Assembly: GCF_004010195.1 (NCBI RefSeq)
Contig: NC_057718.1
Location: 70,011,965-70,031,964 of the forward strand
Source of the DNA: Chiloscyllium plagiosum
Taxonomy: Eukaryota
Reading direction: 5' to 3'
Length of the DNA stretch: 20,000 nucleotides
The notes beneath the pieces are model-generated. The model was not told where the DNA came from and searched no databases. It saw only the letters and a program-made list of their open reading frames with translations. Both the position numbers and the translations under genes were made by a program. How positions within the stretch are numbered: the first letter of the stretch is position 1; every line of letters begins with the position of its first letter. Below are positions 395 through 20,000 of this stretch, piece by piece.

Positions 395-1302
395 TATATA
401 TATTTTAAAATCTTTATTTTCCTTTTTTTTCTTTTAAAGCTCTGTTTATTTATTTATTTATTTTTCTTTTCTTTATTATTTTCCCCCCACACTACCACCT
501 AAGTGCGGTAGTGCTTATTTTTTTCCCCGCACCCATGGTGTGTGTGTGCAGGTGTGAGATACAGTGAGAGACATAAGGTGTATGAATCTTTATTCAATTT
601 CCACCACCAGGAAAATAGGAAAACACCCGAGTGGTGAACAACTCCAGGGTGTTGGTGGACACCGCGTGCTCCTTCTCCAAGGACACCCGGGCTCTAGCGT
701 AACCGCGGAAGAGGGGCAGGCATTCGGCCCTAACGACCCCCTCCACGGCCCGCTGCCTGGGCCTGTTGATGGCCAGCTTGGCCAGGCCCAGGAGCAGACC
801 CACGAGGAGGTCTTCAGACCTGCCCTCCCTCCTCCGTACCGGGTGCCCGAAGATCAGAAGCGTGGGACTGAAGTGCAACCAAAAGCAGAGGAGGAGGTTT
901 TTCAGAAAATCCAAAAAGGGAGTGCAAACGCCCACACCCAATATACACGTGGTCCACGGACTCCACAGCGCCACAGCGCCACAGTTGGGCTGGGAGTCCA
1001 TGAACCACCGCAACCTGCGGTTGCAGGGGACTGCTGCGTGCAGCACCCTCCACCCCAGATCCCCGAGAGAAAGGGGGAGGACTCCCGTGTAGAGAGCCCT
1101 CCACTGGGGATCCCCACCGCCCGGTGGCAAATGGGCACGCCAAGGCATGTCCAGACGGTGGATGAGGGAGAAGAGGTGGACGGTGTGCAGCAGCAGTCTA
1201 TACAGGGCCCTTCTTTTCACATCCCTAAATGAGACAAAATTAAAATTTTGGAGGCGGCTCAGGTTGTGGGGCACAGGCTCCTGCGGGAAGTACGGGACCT
1301 TG
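395..1302 (-). mobile_element. 5'-truncated Tx1/L1-clade non-LTR retrotransposon (ORF2 C-terminus with zf-RVT-like region, 3'UTR, AT-rich tail)
   Basis: Minus-strand translation DLGWRVLHAAVPCNRRL..C..CGAVESVDHVYIGC..LLLGLAKLAI resembles the Tx1 ORF2 C-terminus. Exact 15-bp direct repeat AACAAGTGTGATATA at 380-394 and 1303-1317 (TSD). A-rich/(TA)n tail at about 395-480 on the minus strand. GC/CpG-rich relative to flanks. Confidence 0.85.
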
Positions 1303-2368: not shown

Positions 2369-3339
2369 ATAGAGTCATAGAGATGTACAGCACGGGAACA
2401 GACCCTTTGGTTCAACTTGTCCATGCCAACCAGATATCCCAACCCAATCTAGTCCCACCTGCCAGCACCCGGCCCATATCCCTCCAAACCCTTCCTATTC
2501 ATATATCCATCCAGATGTCTTTTAAATGTTGCTCGCCTCCACCACTTCCTCTGGCAGCTCATTCCATACACTGTGTGAAAACATTGTCCCCTTAGGTATC
2601 TTTTATATTTTTCCCCTCTCACCCTAAACCTATGCCCTCTAGTTCTGGACTCCCTGACCCCAGGGAAAAGACTTTGTCTACTTTCCTATCCATACCCCTC
2701 ATGATTTTGTAAACCTCTAGAAAGTCACCCCTCAACCTCTAACACTCAAGGGAAAACAGCCCCAGCCTATTCAACATCTCCCTCTAGCTCAAAACCTCCA
2801 TACCTGGCAACATCCTTGTAATTCTTTTCTGAACCCTTTCAAGTTTCACAACATCTTTCCGATAGGAAGGAGACCAGTACTGCATGCAATATTCCAACAG
2901 TGGCCTAACCTATGTCCTGTACAGCCGCAACATGACCTCCCAACTCTTGTACTCCATACTCTGACCAATAAAGGAAAGCATACCAAACACCTTCTTCACT
3001 ATCCTAATTACTTGCGACTCCACTTTCAAGAAGCTATGAATCTGCACTCCAAGCAGGTTCAGCAACACTTCAGCAACACTCCGAGGACCTTACCATTAAG
3101 TGTATAAGTCCTGCTAAAATTTGCTTTCCCAAAATGTTGCACCTCACATTTATCTAAATTAAACTCTATCTGCCACTTCTCAGCCCATTGGCCCATCTGG
3201 TCAAGATCCCATTGTAATCTGAGATAACATTCTTCGCTGTCCACTATACCACCAATTTTGGAGTCATCTGTAAATGTACTAACTATACCTCTTATGCTCA
3301 CATCCAAATCATTTATATAAATGATGAAAAGTAGTGGAC
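2369..3339 (-). mobile_element. 5'-truncated CR1 LINE 3' fragment (RT C-terminal part and 3'UTR)
   Basis: ORF 3059-3349 PLLFIIYINDLD..STFTDDSKIGG..QWAEKWQIEFNLDKCEVQHFG is CR1 RT. Tail (ATAGAGTC)n at 2369-2382. Closely similar to 17123-18060. Confidence 0.92.
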
Positions 3340-3992: not shown

Positions 3993-4211
3993 TTTAACTT
4001 TTTAACTTTGCTTCTTTACTTTTCTGTTTTGTACCTAAGATTTTGTACCAAGGTACCTTTCTATCAAGAAGGCACTGTAAGTGGTGACTTATAAACTTTT
4101 CACTATACTCATGTGAGTACATCTGTCAACAAACCTAATTCTACTGCTGTAGAGATGGCTTTAAACTAATTGTAGAAATAGAAATATAAATTGGAAAAAG
4201 AAATAAATCTT

Positions 4212-4341
4212 TCATCAGAAAAGAGCTTATGCTCAATATATCAACTCTCCTGCTCCTCGGATGCTGCCTGACCAGCTGTGCTTTTCCATCACCACACTTT
4301 TTGACTCTAATATCCAGCATCTACAGTCCTCACTTTCTCCC
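4212..4341 (+). mobile_element. PLE pseudo-LTR-like short repeat with decayed HHR (duplicated at 4986-5115)
   Basis: GAGC-TTAT-GCTC stem (4223-4234), followed by CTCCTGCTCCTCGGATGCTGCCTGACCAGCTGTGCTTTTCC..CCAGCATCTACAGTCC. Homologous to the reverse complement of 4703-4785 and 8410-8499. HHR core bases are mutated. Confidence 0.65.
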
Positions 4342-4694
4342 AGTGACTAAGGAGTCAGTGAGGGAGCACTGTGTGGCCAGTGATCATAATATTACTAGTT
4401 TTTAAATAGTTACGGAGAAAGGTAGACCTGATCTAAAAGTTAAAATTTCTAAATTGGAGTAAGGCTAATTTTGACAGTATTAGGCAAGAACTTGCAAAGG
4501 TTGATTGAGAGAGACTATTCGCAGGTAAAGGGATGATTGGAAAGTAGTAGGCCTTCAAAAATGAGATATCAAGAGTCCAGAGACATTATGTCTCTGTTAG
4601 TGTGAAGAACAAGGCTGATATTTGCAGGGAATGCTGGATGATGAGAGAAACTGAAACTCTGGTCAAGCAAATGAAGGAGGCATATTACAGGTAT

Positions 4695-4922
4695 GAAACT
4701 TTATTGCTGGAACAGCACAGCAGGTCAGGCAGCATCCAGGGAACAGGAGATTCGACGTTTCGGGCACAGGCCCTTCTTCTGGAATGAGCAGAGAGTGTTC
4801 AGCAGAAGATAAAAGGTAGGGAGGAGGGACTTGGAGGAGGGGCGTTGGAAATGTGATAGGTGGAAAGAGGTCAAGGTGAGGGTGACAGGTCGGAGTAGGA
4901 TGGAGGCGGAGAGGTCAAGAAG
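4695..4922 (-). mobile_element. PLE fragment (pseudo-LTR with HHR motif plus adjacent purine/pyrimidine-biased region)
   Basis: Minus strand 4785-4750 reads ATTC-CAGAAGA-A-GGGC-CTGT-GCCC-GAAA-CGTC-GAAT (one core substitution, U4 to A), followed by the shared GATGCTGCCTGACCTGCTG motif. Confidence 0.75.
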
Positions 4923-5115
4923 GTAGAGATGGCTTTAAACTAATTGTAGAAATAGAAATATAAATTGGAAAAAGAAATAAATCTTTCATCAGAAAAGAGC
5001 TTATGCTCAATATGTCAACTCTCCTGCTCCTCGGATGCTGCCTGACCAGCTGTGCTTTTCCATCACCACACTTTTTGACTCTAATATCCAGCATCTACAG
5101 TCCTCACTTTCTCCC

Positions 5116-6472
5116 AGTGACTAAGGAGTCAGTGAGGGAGCACTGTGTGGCCAGTGATCATAATATTACTAGTTTTTAAATAGTTACGGAGAAAGGTAGA
5201 CCTGATCTAAAAGTTAAAATTTCTAAATTGGAGTAAGGCTAATTTTGACAGTATTAGGCAAGAATTTGCAAAGGTTGATTGAGAGAGACTATTCGCAGGT
5301 AAAGGGATGATTGGAAAGTAGTAGGCCTTCAAAAATGAGATAACAAGAGTCCAGAGACACTATGTCTCTGTTAGTGTGAAGAACAAGGCTGATATTTGCA
5401 GGGAATGCTGGATGATGAGAGAAACTGAAACTCTGGTCAAGCAAATGAAGGAAGCATATTACAGGTATAGATAGCTGGATTGAGTGAGTCCCTCAGGAGT
5501 ATTTCAGCAGTCGGATAATACTCGAGGGAAATCAGGAGAATAAAAGGATGATATGTGATAGCCAAACAGGGTTATGGAGAATCCAAAGAGATTCCACAAA
5601 TACATTAAGGGCAAAAAAAGAGTAACTGGGGAGAGGAATATCAACAAGGTTGTCTATGTGTGGAATCACAGGAGTTGGGTGAGATACAAGTATTTTCACA
5701 TTCATGTTTACTATGGAGAAGGATATGGAAACTAAAGAACTTGGAATGATAAATCGTGATGTCTCGAAAAGTCTCTATATTACAGAGGAGGACATGCTGG
5801 ACTCTTTAAACGCATAAAGGTGGAAAAATCCCCAGGTACTGATCAGGTCAACACAAAACTTTGGGAAGTTATGGAAATAATTGCTGGGCCCCTTGCTGAG
5901 ATATTTGTATCATTGATAGCCACATGTGAGGTGCTGAAAGACTGAAGGGTAGCTGATGTGGTTTAAGAAATATAGTAAGGAAAAGCCAGGGAGTTATAGA
6001 CCAGTGAGCCTGAAATCAGTGATGGAGAAGCTGTTGAAGGGGATTCTGAGGGATAGGATTTACATGCATTTGGAAAGGCAAAGATTGATTAGGCTTGTGC
6101 ATGGGAAATCGTGTCTAGCTAATTTGATTGAGTTTTTTGAAGAAGTGACAAAGAAGATTGATGAAGACAGGGTGGTGGATGCGACTATATGGGCTTCAGC
6201 AAGGCATTCAACAAAGTTCCGCATGGTAGACTGGTTAACAAGATTAGATCACGTGAAATCCAAGGAGAGCTAGCGATTTGGATATAAAATTGGTGTGAAG
6301 GTAGGAGACAGAATGTGGTGTGGAGGGTTGTTTCTCGGATTGGAGGCCTGTGTCACAAAGATTGATGCTTTTTATCATTTGTATAAATGATTTGGATGGG
6401 AATATAGGAGGAATAGTTAGTAGGTTTGCAGATAACACCAAAATTGGTGGTGTAGTGGACAGTGAAGAAGGT
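5116..6472 (+). mobile_element. Decayed CR1 ORF2 (endonuclease end, tether, RT N-terminal half); first ~350 bp also duplicated at 4342-4694
   Basis: SDHN motif (4379-4390 and its copy), KEKPGSYRPVSL, KSCLANLIEFFEEVTKKIDE, FIICINDLDGNIGGIVSRFADNTKIGG. Many stops and deletions. Confidence 0.88.
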
Positions 6473-8380: not shown

Positions 8381-8409
8381 GCCAGTTGTTGCCAACAGGT
8401 ACAGAACTG

Positions 8410-8499
8410 AAAATGTGTTGCTGGAAAAGTGCAGCAGGTCAGGCAGCATCCAAGGAGCAGGAAATTCGACGTTTCGGGCATGAGCCCTTCTTCAGGAGT
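8410..8499 (-). ncRNA. PLE pseudo-LTR fragment with an intact minimal hammerhead ribozyme core (8464-8499)
   Basis: Minus strand reads ACTC-CTGAAGA-A-GGGC-TCAT-GCCC-GAAA-CGTC-GAAT: complete CUGANGA, GAAA and GUC, 4-bp stem II, ACGU palindromic helix III, stem I with one mismatch. Confidence 0.75.
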
Positions 8500-8532: not shown

Positions 8533-8737
8533 AAAACAAAAAGAACTGCAGATGCTGGATATCAGAAACAAAACCAGAAAGTGCTGGGAAAACTCGACAG
8601 ATCTGACAGCATAATTGGAGGAAAAATAGAGTTACATTTTAGGTCCTGTTCTAAAGAAGGGTCACTGGATTTTGCTTTCTCTCCAGAGATCTCGCCAGAT
8701 CTGCTGAGTTTTCCCAGTAATTTCTGATTTTGTTTCT
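8533..8737. mobile_element. Head-to-head inverted PLE pseudo-LTR pair (hairpin, MITE-like)
   Basis: Arms of about 62 bp at 8564-8625 and 8676-8737 are imperfect reverse complements. Centre CTAAAGAAGGGTCACTGGA is a truncated HHR core. Confidence 0.7.
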
Positions 8738-9117
8738 CATTATGCCAGTATATTGTAGATGTGAATTACAGCCTGTAATCACTTCCTTTGTGCTCCCTTT
8801 TGCTGGCTGTAAATTAAAGCTCATGTGTGGACTTGTCCGAATGCCAGCTGAAATGTGTGTTGTTCCCCTACTGGACCATAACAAAATAAGGGTAACTACT
8901 GAACTCTGAGTACAGAGTCTTCAGATAGGACAACTGGTATCTAAGGACAGATAAATTTTATGGCATGCAGTTTAAACAGTGACTAAGATGAGAGCGGTGG
9001 GGGGGAGGGGGAGGTGGGGGCGGTTGGATGTGTGAAGTCTGCCATGCCAGCTATATACCGTGGGCTGCAATAGCTTTATGGATGCTGTGCTATTAGACTG
9101 GCAGCAAGACAACTTGT

Positions 9118-10828: not shown

Positions 10829-10913
10829 GTCAGTTAGACTCAAAACGTCAGCTCTTTTCTCTCCTTACAGATGCTGCCAGACCTGCTGAGATTTTCCAGC
10901 ATTTTTCCTTTGG
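10829..10913 (+). mobile_element. PLE pseudo-LTR fragment inserted in the RTE, with decayed HHR
   Basis: Flanked by GTTTTTGAAGG (10818-10828) and GTTCTTGAAGG (10914-10924). Contains (G)GTC-AGTTA-GACT-CAAAACGTC and GATGCTGCCAGACCTGCTGAG. Confidence 0.7.
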
Positions 10914-11347
10914 GTTCTTGAAGGCCTCCTGTGTACCTTGATCTAGGGTTCATTCCACAATGTCAGGCCAGGTTGATGGAGGATCTTCATCTCGCAAATG
11001 TTCAGAGTGAGGCCCATGCTCTCATCTGCCTCTGTAAAAGTGCTGACCATGGTTTGGAGTTCGTCCTCTGAGTTTGCATACAAGCAAAATGTTATCTGCG
11101 TACTACAGCTCGATGACACTGGTTGGGGTGACTTTAGCTTTGGCTTGAAAGCGGCGGAGTTTCCTGCAGGTTCAATAGGTTAGCTTCACTCCATCAGGCA
11201 TCCTGTCAGTGGTGAGGTGAAGCACTGCAGAGAGATAGATTAAGAACAATGTTAGGGTGATGACACAGCCCTGGTTGATGCCAGTCTGAATAAGGAATGG
11301 GTTTGTGGTGGAGCCGTTTGTCATTACCATAACTTCCATGTTGTCGT

Positions 11348-11818: not shown

Positions 11819-12456
11819 GTCGTGGAGCAAGTAAAGGATAATGACAAACCCTGTGGAGCAGCTAAAGTTGGAGTAAGGCGCTCCATAATGCCTTTTGGTT
11901 GATGGTGTCAAAGGCCTTTGTAAGGTCAAAGAAAGCAATGTGCAGAGATAGGTTATTTTCTCTGTATCTCTCATACAGCTGTTACATGGTGAAAATCATG
12001 CCTATTGTACCCTTCTGTTGCTGGAAGCCACACTGTAATTCTGGGGTGAGATTCCACAGCCACAAGGAGGAGACAATTGAAGAGGACCTTGGTCTTTTCT
12101 AATGGTCAACACCAAGGAGATTCCCATGTAGTTACCACAGGGATTGTTCCTTTTTTTGAAAATGCTCACGACGGTGGCATATTGGAGCTTTCCCAGGATA
12201 CTCTCCTCCTTCCCGATAAGGCAGACAAGGGCATGTAGCTGCAGCTGGAGCTTTTTGCCTCTGCTTCAATCCCTCAGTGGGAATACCCTCTGCTCCGGCA
12301 GCCTTGCTGTTCTTGAATTGGCAGATGGCCTTATCTGTTTCATGCAGGACTGGGGTGTTGCTGAGCTCGTGGTGTGTAGCATGTTGTGGGATGCAGTCAA
12401 AGGTGCTCGGATCAGTGATAGAGCCCAGATTGAGGAAGTCTCTGAAGTGGTTTCTT

Positions 12457-12477
12457 CCCCCCCCCCCCCCCCCCCCC
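12457..12477 (+). repeat. C21 homopolymer
   Basis: 21 consecutive C within the RTE remnant. Confidence 0.95.
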
Positions 12478-12830
12478 ACCGCCCGCAATGCTTTTTGTTC
12501 CCTTCTTTGTTTTTGATAAGAGTCACTAGGTTTGTGGGGAAGAGCTGGTTGTAAGAGACTATCTTTTCTGAGTCTTTGAGTGCCTTAATGTCAATGAAAG
12601 GAGCCGATAACTGCAGGATAAACAATTGCCTGATCCAAGCTAGGATCAACATAAATATAATCCTGTCTCAGCGGAGACAACTGAAATAGTGCCACAAAAA
12701 GTGCCACTGAGGCACTCAAAGACCGGAAAAGATAACCTTCAACTGATCCTTGGCCCAATGGAATAGCAATGACTGCTGTTCATCTATCTCAATAATATTA
12801 AAAATCACACAACACCTGGCTATAGTCTAT

Positions 12831-12865
12831 CACCTGATGAAGGATCGTCGCTCTGAAAGCTAGTG
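12831..12865 (+). ncRNA. Minimal hammerhead ribozyme, intact core with imperfect stem II
   Basis: CAC-CTGATGA-A-GGATC-GTC-GCTCT-GAAA-GCTA-GTG. Confidence 0.7.
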
Positions 12866-13025
12866 TCTTCCAATTAAACCTGTTGGACTATAACCTGGTG
12901 TTGTGTGATTTTTAACTTTGAACACCCCAGTCCAACACCGGGATCTCCAAACCATGGTTATAGTCCAGCAGGTTTATTTGGAACCACTAGCTTTTGGAGC
13001 ACCACTCCATCAGGTGGTTGTCAAC

Positions 13026-13060
13026 CACCTGATGAAGGAGCAGCTCTCCGAAAGCTAGTG
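13026..13060 (+). ncRNA. Minimal hammerhead ribozyme, intact
   Basis: CAC-CTGATGA-A-GGAG-CAGCT-CTCC-GAAA-GCTA-GTG: stem I CAC/GUG, 4-bp stem II, AGCU palindromic helix III, CUA cleavage triplet. Confidence 0.8.
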
Positions 13061-13324
13061 CTTCCAAATAAATCTGTTGGACTATAACCTGGTGTAATGT
13101 GATTTTTAACTTTTGTCCACCTCCAAGTCATATCTTAATTACATTTTCTTGAGACAGAGCAGTTCGGGCCCAGCCTTGGCCTACTGCCATGAAATGTAGA
13201 AAGTGAGACGAACTTGGCAGAAACAGCTTTGAGATGCAGCCAGCAGCATTCCACTGACAGAAGATGCCATGAAAAGTTTCAGTAATGCAAGATGGAACAT
13301 TCCTGGCTGAATGAAGAAGGTTGA

Positions 13325-13815
13325 TATTCCCCACCTACCTGGATGATTGTGGCTCAAATAAAACTAAAAAACTCAAATCTACAAAGTATAAAGCCACATC
13401 TTTATACCCAGTCCATCAACATAAATAATCACATCTTCCAAAGCACAGTGATAGGAGTATGTGTTATGGACAAGATGCTCTGCAGCCATGCATCAATTCT
13501 ACTTGGACAGCACTTACTGAACCGAAGAGCTCTACCACCTAAAAGGACGGACAGCAGATGCATGGAAACACCATCCCTGCACGTTCCCCATCATGTAGTA
13601 CACCTTCTGGATTTGGAATTTCATTGTCATTACTTCACTGTCTCTGGATCAAAATCCTGGAATTCCCTCCAAACAGCAGAGTGAATATATCTACATCAGA
13701 TGGGAATGTAGTGATTAAAGAAGGCAGCTCACCACTACATTCTGAAAGGAGATTAGAGTTGGGCAATAAATGCTGGCCTTGCCAGCAATCCCACATCCTA
13801 TGAAAGAACTTTTTA
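13325..13815 (+). mobile_element. Old L2/CR1-clade LINE 3' end
   Basis: Decayed coding ..CVMDKMLCSH..LLGQHL.., then the tail GGGCAATAAATGCTGGCCTTGCCAGC..CCCACATCC. The same tail recurs at 16985-17050. Confidence 0.7.
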
Positions 13816-14179: not shown

Positions 14180-14275
14180 TCTGATCAAAGTTTATTGCTT
14201 GAAATTATTTACTTCTCTTTCTCTCCATTGATGCTGCCAGATTGACTGCGTACGTTTGGAAACTTCTGTTTTTAT
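14180..14275 (+). mobile_element. Highly decayed PLE pseudo-LTR
   Basis: CTGATCAAAG..TTGAAA, then TTTCTCTCCATTGATGCTGCCAGA..TTCTGTTTTTAT, matching the other copies. Confidence 0.55.
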
Positions 14276-15208: not shown

Positions 15209-15332
15209 TTCTTAAGAAGCGCCACAGAACCCAAAACAGTAATTCTGATTTCTCTCCACAGATGCTGGCAGACCTGCTGAATCTTTCTAGCAACTTGTTT
15301 TTGGCTTTGGTTTGCAGCAAGAACAGTTCTTT
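15209..15332 (+). mobile_element. Decayed PLE pseudo-LTR
   Basis: CTTAAGAAG..ACCCAAAAC, then TTTCTCTCCACAGATGCTGGCAGACCTGCTGA..GCAGCAAGAACAGTTCTTT. Confidence 0.6.
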
Positions 15333-17122: not shown

Positions 17123-18858
17123 GAGTCATGTACAGTATGGAAACAGACCCTTCAGTCCAACTTGTCCAGGCCAACCAGATATCCCAAATGCCTCTTAAAT
17201 GTTACAATTGTACCAGCCTCCACCACATCCTCTGGCAGCTCATTCCATGTACCAACCTCTGCGTGAAAGAGTTGTCCCTTAGGTCTCTTTTATATCTTTC
17301 CCCTCTCACCCTAAACCTATGCCCTCTAGTTCTGGATTCCCCGACCCAGGGAAAAGATTTTGCCTATTTATCCTATCCATGCCCCCCATAATTTTGTAAA
17401 CTTCTATAAGGTCACCCCTCAGCCTCCGATGCTCCAGGGAGAACAGCCCCAGCCTGTTCAGCCTCTCCCTATAGTTCAAATCCTCCAACCCTGGCAACAT
17501 CCTTGTAAATCTTTTCGGAACCCTTTCAAGTTTCACAACATCTTTCCGATAAGAGGGAGACCAGAATTGCATGCAATATTCCAATAGTGGCCTAACCAAT
17601 GTCCTGTACAGCCGCAACATGACCTCCCAACTCCTGTACTCAATACTCTGACCAATAAATGAAAGCATTTCAAACGCCTTCTTCACTATCCTATCTACCT
17701 GCGAATCCACTTTCAAGGAACTATGAACCGGCACTCAAAGGTCTCTTTGTTCAGCAACACTCCCTAGGACCTTACCATTAAGTGTATAAGTCCTGCTAAG
17801 ATTTGCTTTCTCAAAATGCAGCACTTTGCATTTATCCAAATTTAACTCCATCTGCCACTTCTCAGCCCATTGGCCCATCTGGTCAAGATTCTGTTGTAAT
17901 CTGAGGTAACCCTCTCCGCTGTCCACTACACCTCAAATTTTGGTGTCATCTGGAAACTTACTAACCATACCTCTTATGCTCGCATCCAAATCATTTATGT
18001 AAACAGAAAAAAGTAGAGGACCCAGCACCGATCCTTGTGGCACTCCACTGGTCACAGGCCTAAAAACAACCCTCCATCACCACCCTCTGTCTTCTACCTT
18101 TGAGCCAGTTCTGTACCCAAATGGCTAGTTCTCCCTGTATTCCATGAGATCTAACCTTGCTAATCAGCCTTCCACGGGGAACTTTGTTGAATGCCTTACT
18201 GAAGTACTTATAGATCACATCTACTGCTCTGCCCTCATCAATCTTCTTTGTTACTTCTTCAAAAAACTCAATCAAGTTTGTGAGACATGATTTCCCACAC
18301 ACAAAGCCATGTTGACTATCCCTAATCAGTGAGAGAGATGCTGCCTTGAATGCTGCCTGACCTGCTGCACTTTTCTAGCAACACATTTTTCAGCGCTTAT
18401 CCCTAATCAGTCCTTGCCTTTCCAAGTACATGTACATCTTGTCCCTCAGGATTCCCTCCAACAACTTGCCCACCATCGAGGTCAGGCTCACCGGTCGATA
18501 GTTCCCTGGCTTGTCTTTACCGCCCTTCTTAAACAGTGGCACCACGTTTGCCAACCTCCAGTCTTCGGGCACCTCACCTGTCACTATCAATGATACAAAT
18601 ATCTCAGCAAGAGGCCCAGCAATCACTTCTCTAACTTCCCACAGAGTTCACGGGTACACCTGATCAGGTCCTGGAGATTTATCCACCTTTAACTGTTTCA
18701 AGGCATCCAGCACTTCCTCCTCTGTAATCTGGACATTTTGCAAGATGACACCTACAGTCTATATCTTCCATATCCTTTTCCCCAGTAAATACTGATGCAA
18801 AATATTCATTTAGTATCTCCCCCATTTTCTGTGGCTCCACACAAAGGCCGCCTTGAAT
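17123..18858 (-). mobile_element. 5'-truncated CR1 LINE ORF2 (RT) with 3'UTR
   Basis: ORFs give ILNEYFASVFT, VPEDWRLANVVPLFKKGGKDKPGNYRPVSLTS, KSCLTNLIEFFEEVT, QWAEKWQME and LYRTLVRPLLEYCMQFWSP..RRLRGDLIEVYKIM. Frameshifted. Confidence 0.95.
18331..18397 (+). mobile_element. 67-bp PLE pseudo-LTR fragment inserted in CR1 with a 14-bp TSD
   Basis: Exact TATCCCTAATCAGT at 18317-18330 and 18398-18411. Insert contains ATGCTGCCTGACCTGCTGCACTTTTCTAGCAACACATTTT, similar to the reverse complement of 8410-8450. Confidence 0.85.
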
Positions 18859-19330
18859 GATCTCTTTCTGTGCAATAACCATTCTATGGTGGAAACTTCC
18901 CCTAATTGTGTGGTGGAGTAATGTTGGACAAGGTGGGAAAATGAAATACTCAATGTTAAGAAACTTATCCTGAAATTTCTCTCAATTACTAAGTGTCAAC
19001 TTCAGAATCTTGCCTTCGAGCAGCAATTATCTTATTTCCATGCATTTGCATTCTACTAAAGTACCATTGTACCATATAATCTTCTTACTTCACTGAGAAT
19101 CTAGACAGCACAAATTTACAACATATAAATCAGAACAGTATCTGGTGACTGTGGCTCACCACATGCTTGTTCCAGACAATGTCTGTGCATGCTCCTGGCA
19201 ATTATTCAATGCAAGACAGAAACAGCAAGCCTGCAGCCTCACTACATCTCACACCTGCTCTCAGACCAACGCTGACACCCCTTTAGCTTTTTATAAAAAT
19301 ATAGAAACTAGGAACAGGAGTAGTCCATTT

Positions 19331-20000
19331 GAAGTTGAGAAGTTGTTGCCGGATTGGATCAGGGTAAACCCTAAGGCTTTCTATAGGTATTTAAGGAATA
19401 AAAGAATGACAAGAGTAAGATTAGGGCCAATCAAGGATAGTAGTGGGAAGTTGTGTGTGGAGTCAGGGGAGATAAGGGAAGCACTAGATGAATATTTTTC
19501 AACAGTATTCACTCTAGAAAATGACAATGTTGTGGAGGAGATTACTGAGATACAGGCTACTAGACTAGGTGTGATTAAGGTTCACAAGGGAGAGGTATTA
19601 GAAATCCTGCAGAGTGTGAAAATAGATAAGTCCCCTGGGCCGGATGGGATTTATCCTAGGATCTTCTGGGAAGCCAGGGAGGAGATTGCAGAGCCTTTGG
19701 TATTGATCTTTAAATCGTCATTGTCTACAGGAATAGTGCCAGAATACTGGAGGACAGCAAATGTGGTTCCCCTGTTCAAGAAGGGGAGTAGAGACAATCC
19801 TGGTAATTATAGACCAGTGAGCCTTCCTTCAGTTGTTGGTAAAGTATTGGAAAAGGTTTTAAGAGAGAGGATTTATAATCATCTAAAAAAGAATAATTTG
19901 ATTAGGGATAGTCAGCACGGATTTGTGAAGGGTAGGTCGTGCCTCACAAACCTTATTAAGTTCTTTGAGAAGGTGACCAAACAGGTAGATGAGAGTAAAC
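19331..20000 (+). mobile_element. Young 5'-truncated CR1 ORF2 with an open frame to the window end
   Basis: About 223 stop-free codons from 19331: NPKAFYRYL..KSPGPDGIYPRI..WRTANVVPLFKKGSRDNPGNYRPVSL..QHGFVKGRSCLTNLIKFFEKVT. Probably missed by the ORF track because no stop falls in the window. Confidence 0.93.

Follow-up and report, generated by a model that had tools for sequence, protein, structure and literature searches.

What brings three hammerhead ribozyme motifs, two on one strand and one on the other, together in a short palindromic region of animal DNA? The initial annotation of the window (the whole 20-kb stretch of Chiloscyllium plagiosum DNA analysed here) proposed that positions 12798–13121 form a possible retrozyme-like self-cleaving unit, and that a plus-strand transcript could fold into a dimeric hammerhead and release a 195-nt RNA. 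The present analysis points instead to the remains of a mobile element. Very probably, the locus is made up of short terminal pieces of a single, highly abundant repeat with the hallmarks of Penelope-like element (PLE) terminal repeats; two insertions are likely to have brought the pieces together, and the locus is now likely inert.

Both strands of the window were scanned for the minimal type I hammerhead, defined by a helix I of at least 3 bp, CUGANGA, a stem II of at least 3 bp, GAAA and UH. Exactly two such motifs were found, both on the plus strand. Their cores begin with 12834 and 13029, respectively, and their predicted cuts are 195 nt apart. The same scan of 200 dinucleotide-shuffled sequences gave a mean of 0.01 motifs and a maximum of 1. 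A search of the whole window against 4227 Rfam families gave no match at E ≤ 1, and the hammerhead call is therefore based on the motif scan and the published description of minimal hammerheads (min-HHRs). Hammerhead 2 retains every core base, and has a 3-bp helix I, a 4-bp stem II, an extra A after A9 and a palindromic AGCU. In hammerhead 1, by contrast, a G-U replaces the G10.1-C11.1 pair, which is described as highly conserved in min-HHRs (PMC4209133), and stem II contains a U/C mismatch. The initial annotation was thus accurate as to the two same-strand motifs, their spacing and the defects of the antisense motif, and its assignment of the motifs to the minimal type I hammerheads with palindromic helix III of PLE pseudo-LTRs (pLTRs) agrees with the description in PMC4209133; of its two minimal hammerheads, however, the first is itself decayed. 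Among the nine base pairs compared across the three hammerhead copies, none is changed on both sides. An ATG within the hammerhead core meets a stop codon at the cut site.

The motifs are embedded in two inverted repeats, both recognized in the initial annotation, the longer one as a repeat of about 65 bp with a 1-nt spacer. The longer repeat has 66-nt arms (12956–13021 and 13024–13089, 80% identity), and the shorter repeat, which surrounds hammerhead 1, has 35-nt arms (12798–12832 and 12881–12915, 89% identity). The perfect centre of the palindrome comprises 13008–13020, T13021 and 13022–13034. In the upstream sequence of the repeat family, 13022 is preceded by an A, to which T13021 is complementary, and the antisense arm is thus simply one base longer. 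All four arms can be aligned with one another as pieces of one repeat end, further copies of which were not found elsewhere in the 20-kb window. The segment 12798–12827 is identical to the two sense copies at 28 of 30 and 26 of 30 positions, and the two sense copies match each other at 80 of 91. The region is predicted to fold with −149.9 kcal/mol (z = −13.2 against 100 shuffles). The proposed unit of 12798–13121 does contain the cluster, but its extent is rather 12800–13131 plus a target-site copy on either side (Table 1). A MITE or DNA transposon was considered and rejected: in place of short terminal inverted repeats, the inverted arms hold hammerheads and a tail on one side only.

Table 1. 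Positions of the features of the hammerhead locus in the 20-kb window.
Feature	Position	Strand	Remarks
Target-site duplication, left copy	12786..12799	+	14 bp, 86% A+T, ATCTCAATAATATT; the final TT may alternatively be the element's end
Antisense arm, outer piece	12800..12827	-	Repeat 3' end without tail; alignment, blastn
Inner duplication, left copy	12818..12827	+	10 bp, within antisense arm; 9/10 identical to 12956–12965
First sense copy of repeat end, with full tail	12828..12955	+	Nested, probably a later insertion; bracketed by the 10-bp duplication
Hammerhead 1, minimal type I	12831..12865	+	Decayed; predicted cut after 12862
Tail	12920..12955	+	36 nt, 75% A+C; lies between the family's two end clusters; absent from antisense arm
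Antisense arm, inner piece	12956..13021	-	Starts with the right copy of the inner duplication (10 bases, 12956–12965)
Antisense hammerhead	12985..13016	-	Dead; core GAA deleted, G12 lost (AAAA for GAAA)
Sense arm of head-to-head palindrome	13022..13113	+	Inverted-repeat alignment
Hammerhead 2, minimal type I	13026..13060	+	Core intact; predicted cut after 13057
Likely tail remnant, internally deleted	13114..13131	+	14/18 aligned bases match 12920–12955, with two gaps; weak alone
Target-site duplication, right copy	13132..13145	+	14 bp; 11/14 identical to left copy in the window

How common is this repeat? Contigs were matched to 12200–13700 at 85% likeness in X1 (organism A, whose contigs show 0–1 differences from the window flanks), in X8 (organism B) and in X17, whose contigs match the family and not the locus flanks, and for which an RNA origin is a guess only. 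The numbers of fitting contigs were 71,726, 75,428 and 11,107, respectively, totals that include contigs of a second repeat at 13628–13678. The latter, in the right flank, is a further high-copy repeat of about 40–50 bp with a summed depth of 305,000 in X1. Over 12863–12913, summed depth reached 7.65 million in X1 and 6.36 million in X8, compared with 10–15 in the single-copy right flank, values that are not to be read as a copy number. The repeat is a very high-copy dispersed family. The possibility, raised in the initial annotation, of a one-off inverted PLE insertion scar therefore holds only in part: a scar fits the data, but its parts belong to a family of very high copy number.

The family contigs also define the ends of the repeat. 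Their 3' ends form two clusters about 35 nt apart, with loose ends at 12916–12920 in X1, X8 and X17 and at about 12951 in X17, and beyond these clusters continue into unrelated A+T-rich sequence. The end of the tail lies 93 nt from the hammerhead cut. Several hundred family contigs extend upstream of 13022 with a common sequence, which indicates that the copies in the window are 5'-truncated ends of something longer. Opposite-strand joints at 13022 were also found in family contigs; the sequence between them is not displayed, and they were not taken as a count of palindromes. At position 12845, within hammerhead 1, the window has T, and G makes up 97% of the family's summed depth in X1. Three forms, each in about a third of the family, occur at position 12866, where the first sense copy carries a form different from that of both palindrome arms.

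The boundaries of the locus are marked by a target-site duplication of 14 bp. When 433 other 45-nt blocks of the window were compared with the left copy, just 1 had an 11/14 match. In organism B, different letters at 13136, 13140 and 13142 make the right copy identical to the left at all 14 positions. This full identity comes from one contig of an independent organism (record 24, covering 13081–13548 at a depth of 10.3, with 20 other letters in 468), in which all three differences favour the left copy; three changes per 14 bp is above the expectation from 4% flank divergence. The segment 12800–13131 is likely, from its arrangement, to be the outer insertion, consisting of a tail-less antisense arm followed by a sense arm with an apparently deleted tail. 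Another organism B contig (record 19, 12524–12880) bridges the left flank, the outer antisense piece and hammerhead 1, and both insertion events would thus predate the split that left the flanks about 4% divergent. An assembly artefact was rejected, since organism B contigs bridge the left inner junction as well as the junctions with both flanks, and an X1 contig bridges the right flank junction. Among the organism B matches listed, no contig spans the whole element, and no empty target site was seen among the contigs matched to 12200–13700. At 12681–12684, the orthologous organism B contig has about 15 bases more than the window.

The antisense arm consists of two pieces, one on either side of the first sense copy. 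The outer piece, ending at 12827, has the normal 3' end of the family, and the inner piece, starting at 12956, is without this end and contains the remainder. These two pieces overlap by exactly the ten bases of the inner duplication, which is short and identical at 9 of 10 positions. The 10-mers flank the first sense copy (12828–12955), the end of which is the end of the family tail. At seven columns the inner antisense piece is like the second sense copy and unlike the first, and at three it is like the first and unlike the second; at two of these three (13045 and 13073) and one of the seven (12845), the window departs from what most of the family carries. The nested copy differs from both palindrome arms at seven shared columns. 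In the simplest reading, the first sense copy is likely to have been inserted later, into a terminal repeat of its own element. The 195-nt distance between the two plus-strand hammerheads, which belong to separately bracketed insertions, would then be an accident of nesting.

Which kind of element left these pieces? Membership in the PLEs is based on non-coding hallmarks, namely a hammerhead in a terminal repeat, an inverted 5'-truncated copy, a one-sided tail, an A+T-rich duplicated target and a dispersed multi-copy family. No reverse transcriptase or GIY-YIG reading frame linked to the repeat was found in the window near the locus, and a protein search with the stop-free frame 12881–13087 gave no candidates. 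Three DNA-pattern scans of metagenome and viral contigs for longer copies gave no matches, as expected for an animal repeat. Pfam searches of 11 of the 51 listed frames of the window gave solely RVT_1 matches, far from the locus, at 18060–18374 (E 4e-4) and 19097–19999 (E 2e-9). Searches of an open-licence library gave no paper devoted to this repeat family.

From this anatomy we infer a PLE enzyme, an order of events and present inactivity. In the first event, a PLE GIY-YIG nuclease would have made staggered cuts, 14 nt apart, at an A+T-rich site, and reverse transcription would have produced two short pLTR-end copies joined head to head, one beginning at the inner end point, and hence tail-less, and the other at the outer end point, with the tail. 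Repair would have left the 14-bp duplication around 12800–13131. In the second event, a sense copy with its tail (12828–12955) would have been inserted into the antisense arm, splitting the arm and duplicating 10 bp. Priming on both target strands is favoured over fold-back self-priming as the source of the inverted arm, because the tail is present on one arm only. The hammerheads would be passengers of the pLTR, and a read-through transcript is predicted to lock them in long hairpins with the antisense arm.

Is such a transcript able to cut itself? The cost of the required folds was calculated with ViennaRNA under constraints, which describes equilibrium and omits tertiary contacts, Mg2+, help from proteins and co-transcriptional kinetics. 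The hammerhead shape was predicted to cost 1.5 kcal/mol for hammerhead 2 alone, 4.9 kcal/mol in its own arm and 19.4 kcal/mol in the full RNA. The rise from 1.5 to 19.4 kcal/mol bears out, at the level of prediction, the suggestion in the initial annotation that the long hairpin could sequester the second hammerhead. For hammerhead 1, the predicted cost was 5.1 kcal/mol alone and 8.9 kcal/mol in context. The double hammerhead was predicted to cost 53.1 kcal/mol in 12790–13135, 41.4 and 44.9 kcal/mol in two shorter transcripts, and 18.8 kcal/mol when the antisense arm was removed in silico. Under these models, cleavage at 12862 or 13057 would be unlikely. Among the sequencing runs listed as containing the sequence, none was listed as RNA, and 6% of one single-cell polyA RNA run gave no reads at the locus, a sample too slight for a test. 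The hammerhead of an anole PLE is described as cutting only together with its protein (PMC11167929).

The retrozyme-like reading, in which the plus-strand RNA adopts a double-hammerhead fold and frees a 195-nt linear or circular RNA, was weighed against this background and appears highly improbable. The two same-strand hammerheads with their self-complementary AGCU stand in an order that permits a nested dimer fold, and extensive pairing, like that of retrozyme circles, is predicted for the 195-nt piece (−94.8 kcal/mol linear, −96.1 kcal/mol circular). In addition, non-LTR retrozymes have been predicted in the only cartilaginous fish sampled and a pLTR origin has been proposed for them (bioRxiv 10.64898/2026.07.22.740005). 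Non-LTR retrozymes, however, consist of units repeated in tandem, of which successive ones each have a complete hammerhead (PMC7229834; bioRxiv 10.64898/2026.07.22.740005), and by prediction the locus does not provide two such hammerheads, the G10.1-C11.1 pair of hammerhead 1 being gone. Nor is the 195-nt segment a repeated monomer: only about 90 of its 195 nt recur in direct orientation, and Tandem Repeats Finder (match 2, mismatch 5, indel 7, score 50) detected no arrays in the 20-kb window. By prediction the dimer fold lies out of reach, even without the antisense arm, and weak cleavage has been described for min-HHR dimers and trimers in vitro (PMC4209133); of nine predicted Xenopus dimers, eight were uncut and one was cleaved (bioRxiv 10.64898/2026.07.22.740005). 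The claims of a retrozyme-like unit and of dimeric release of a 195-nt RNA are thus not supported, and what survives of the original interpretation is the PLE pLTR hammerheads and the predicted sequestration by the hairpin. There is also very little probability that the two hammerheads, brought 195 nt apart by the nesting of a PLE end in its own terminal repeat, cut out a rod-like 195-nt RNA circle with the aid of the PLE protein or during transcription, which would be a newborn retrozyme arising through nesting and not through tandem amplification.

Two further explanations accept the repeat pieces and differ as to their history or use. The whole locus could be the product of one compound event, in which jumps of the reverse transcriptase between templates gave two tandem palindromic units, a short antisense piece plus tailed sense copy followed by an antisense plus sense copy. 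This is improbable, although a single outer duplication is seen, PLE insertions often have complex tandem or inverted structures (PMC8557442, PMC3846280), and many joints of the go-back and opposite-strand kinds, variously placed, occur in family contigs. A single event would reduce to coincidence the exact 10-base overlap of the antisense pieces that flank the first sense copy, the missing normal 3' end of the inner antisense piece and the seven column differences of the first sense copy from both arms. Alternatively, the hairpin could have been retained by the host for regulation, either to supply double-stranded RNA or small RNAs directed at the PLE family or as a silencing switch acting on hammerhead 2. 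The great stability of the hairpin, the presence of the insertion in two organisms about 4% apart in their flanks, and the antisense small RNAs arising from rotifer PLE copies (PMC3846280) would suit such a role. The arms have nevertheless drifted without compensation (the antisense arm has eight changes of its own, a 3-nt deletion among them), the hammerhead pairs show no two-sided change, and presence in a close relative requires no selection. The off-switch put forward in the initial annotation would require selection for a function, of which there was no sign. A regulatory hairpin is given scarcely any probability. Two successive PLE insertions remain the preferred account.

Other repeats occur in the window. 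Another family of hammerhead-like repeats, in which the core is CUGAAGA and GAAA is followed by a palindromic ACGU, is present at 8400–8497 (−), 4686–4783 (−), 4221–4300, 4995–5074 and 18339–18389. The core word is complete in the copy at 8495 (−) but damaged in that at 4781 (−), and neither passed the strict scan. A decayed head-to-head inverted pair (8561–8625 and 8676–8740, 65-nt arms, 77%) consists of a related short repeat and is probably a PLE stub of the same kind, with related copies at 10838–10916, 14211–14265 and 15229–15307. The segments 4149–4448 and 4923–5222 share at least 300 bases at 100% identity at a distance of 774 bases, which reflects either local duplication in the very recent past or an error of assembly. 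Several pieces of a LINE-type element, in both orientations, lie at 2383–3339, 5694–6472, 17128–18843 and 19097–19999. Two overlapping G+C-rich frames, 594–1418 (−) and 558–1232 (+), of 274 and 224 codons, respectively, have no Pfam match and are possibly a decayed retroelement frame.

What does the hammerhead locus contribute? It is a tidy example of published PLE insertion anatomy with a likely insertion into its own terminal repeat, and is of little import alone. Genome-wide tallies of such loci could help to separate both-strand priming from fold-back self-priming, a question unsettled in the literature drawn on here. If the 195-nt RNA did exist, it would offer a concrete path from PLE ends to retrozymes.

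Among known systems, the non-LTR retrozymes (PMC7229834) share with the locus two same-strand type I hammerheads, the distance of 195 nt being within the monomer range of 150–450 bp, as well as pLTR ancestry (bioRxiv 10.64898/2026.07.22.740005). The locus differs from those described in these sources in that it is without a head-to-tail monomer repeat, has an antisense copy between its hammerheads, and is known from DNA alone; its hammerheads are minimal and decayed, whereas theirs are canonical. A likeness is also seen with the min-HHRs of metazoan PLE pLTRs, which are described as having a short helix I, an extra base between A9 and G10.1 and a palindromic helix III that needs a dimer, and as occurring in thousands of solo copies and in opposite-strand pairs 100–700 bp apart (PMC4209133). 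The locus is distinguished by its 3-bp helix I and a 2-nt insert (GC) in helix III, and no shark family is named in the portion of that paper drawn on here.

A further protein for comparison is that of Anolis carolinensis Poseidon PAc, which is described as cutting A+T-rich DNA, extending both target strands and being able to cut its own pLTR (PMC11167929). PAc has two reverse transcription start sites, and the interval between them is the tail. The cut site is placed at +26 and the reverse transcription starts at +111–118 (PMC11167929), 85–92 nt apart by subtraction. In both PAc and the present locus, two end points define an A+C-rich tail about 90 nt past the cut (93 nt at the locus), and the targets are A+T-rich. 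The PAc ORF starts at stem II, in contrast with the locus, which has no ORF and in which the ATG of the core is stopped at the cut site.

The insertion units of endonuclease-bearing PLEs match the locus in overall form. PMC8557442 describes 5'-truncated PLE insertions with an adjacent inverted truncated copy and a 30–40 bp tail, often at one end only, and PMC3846280 describes inverted pLTRs with target-site duplications of 8–10 bp, a 31-bp tail, palindromic head-to-head junctions and a PLE inside another PLE. The locus has just about 90–130 bp of the end and no ORF, and its outer duplication is 14 bp long, unlike the 8–10 bp reported in rotifer (PMC3846280). Head-to-head ends, a palindromic junction, a one-sided tail, an A+T-rich duplicated target and a copy inserted into a copy are common to the locus and these units (PMC3846280, PMC8557442). 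PLE insertion architecture of this sort has already been published, and the target-site duplications specific to this locus are newly described here.
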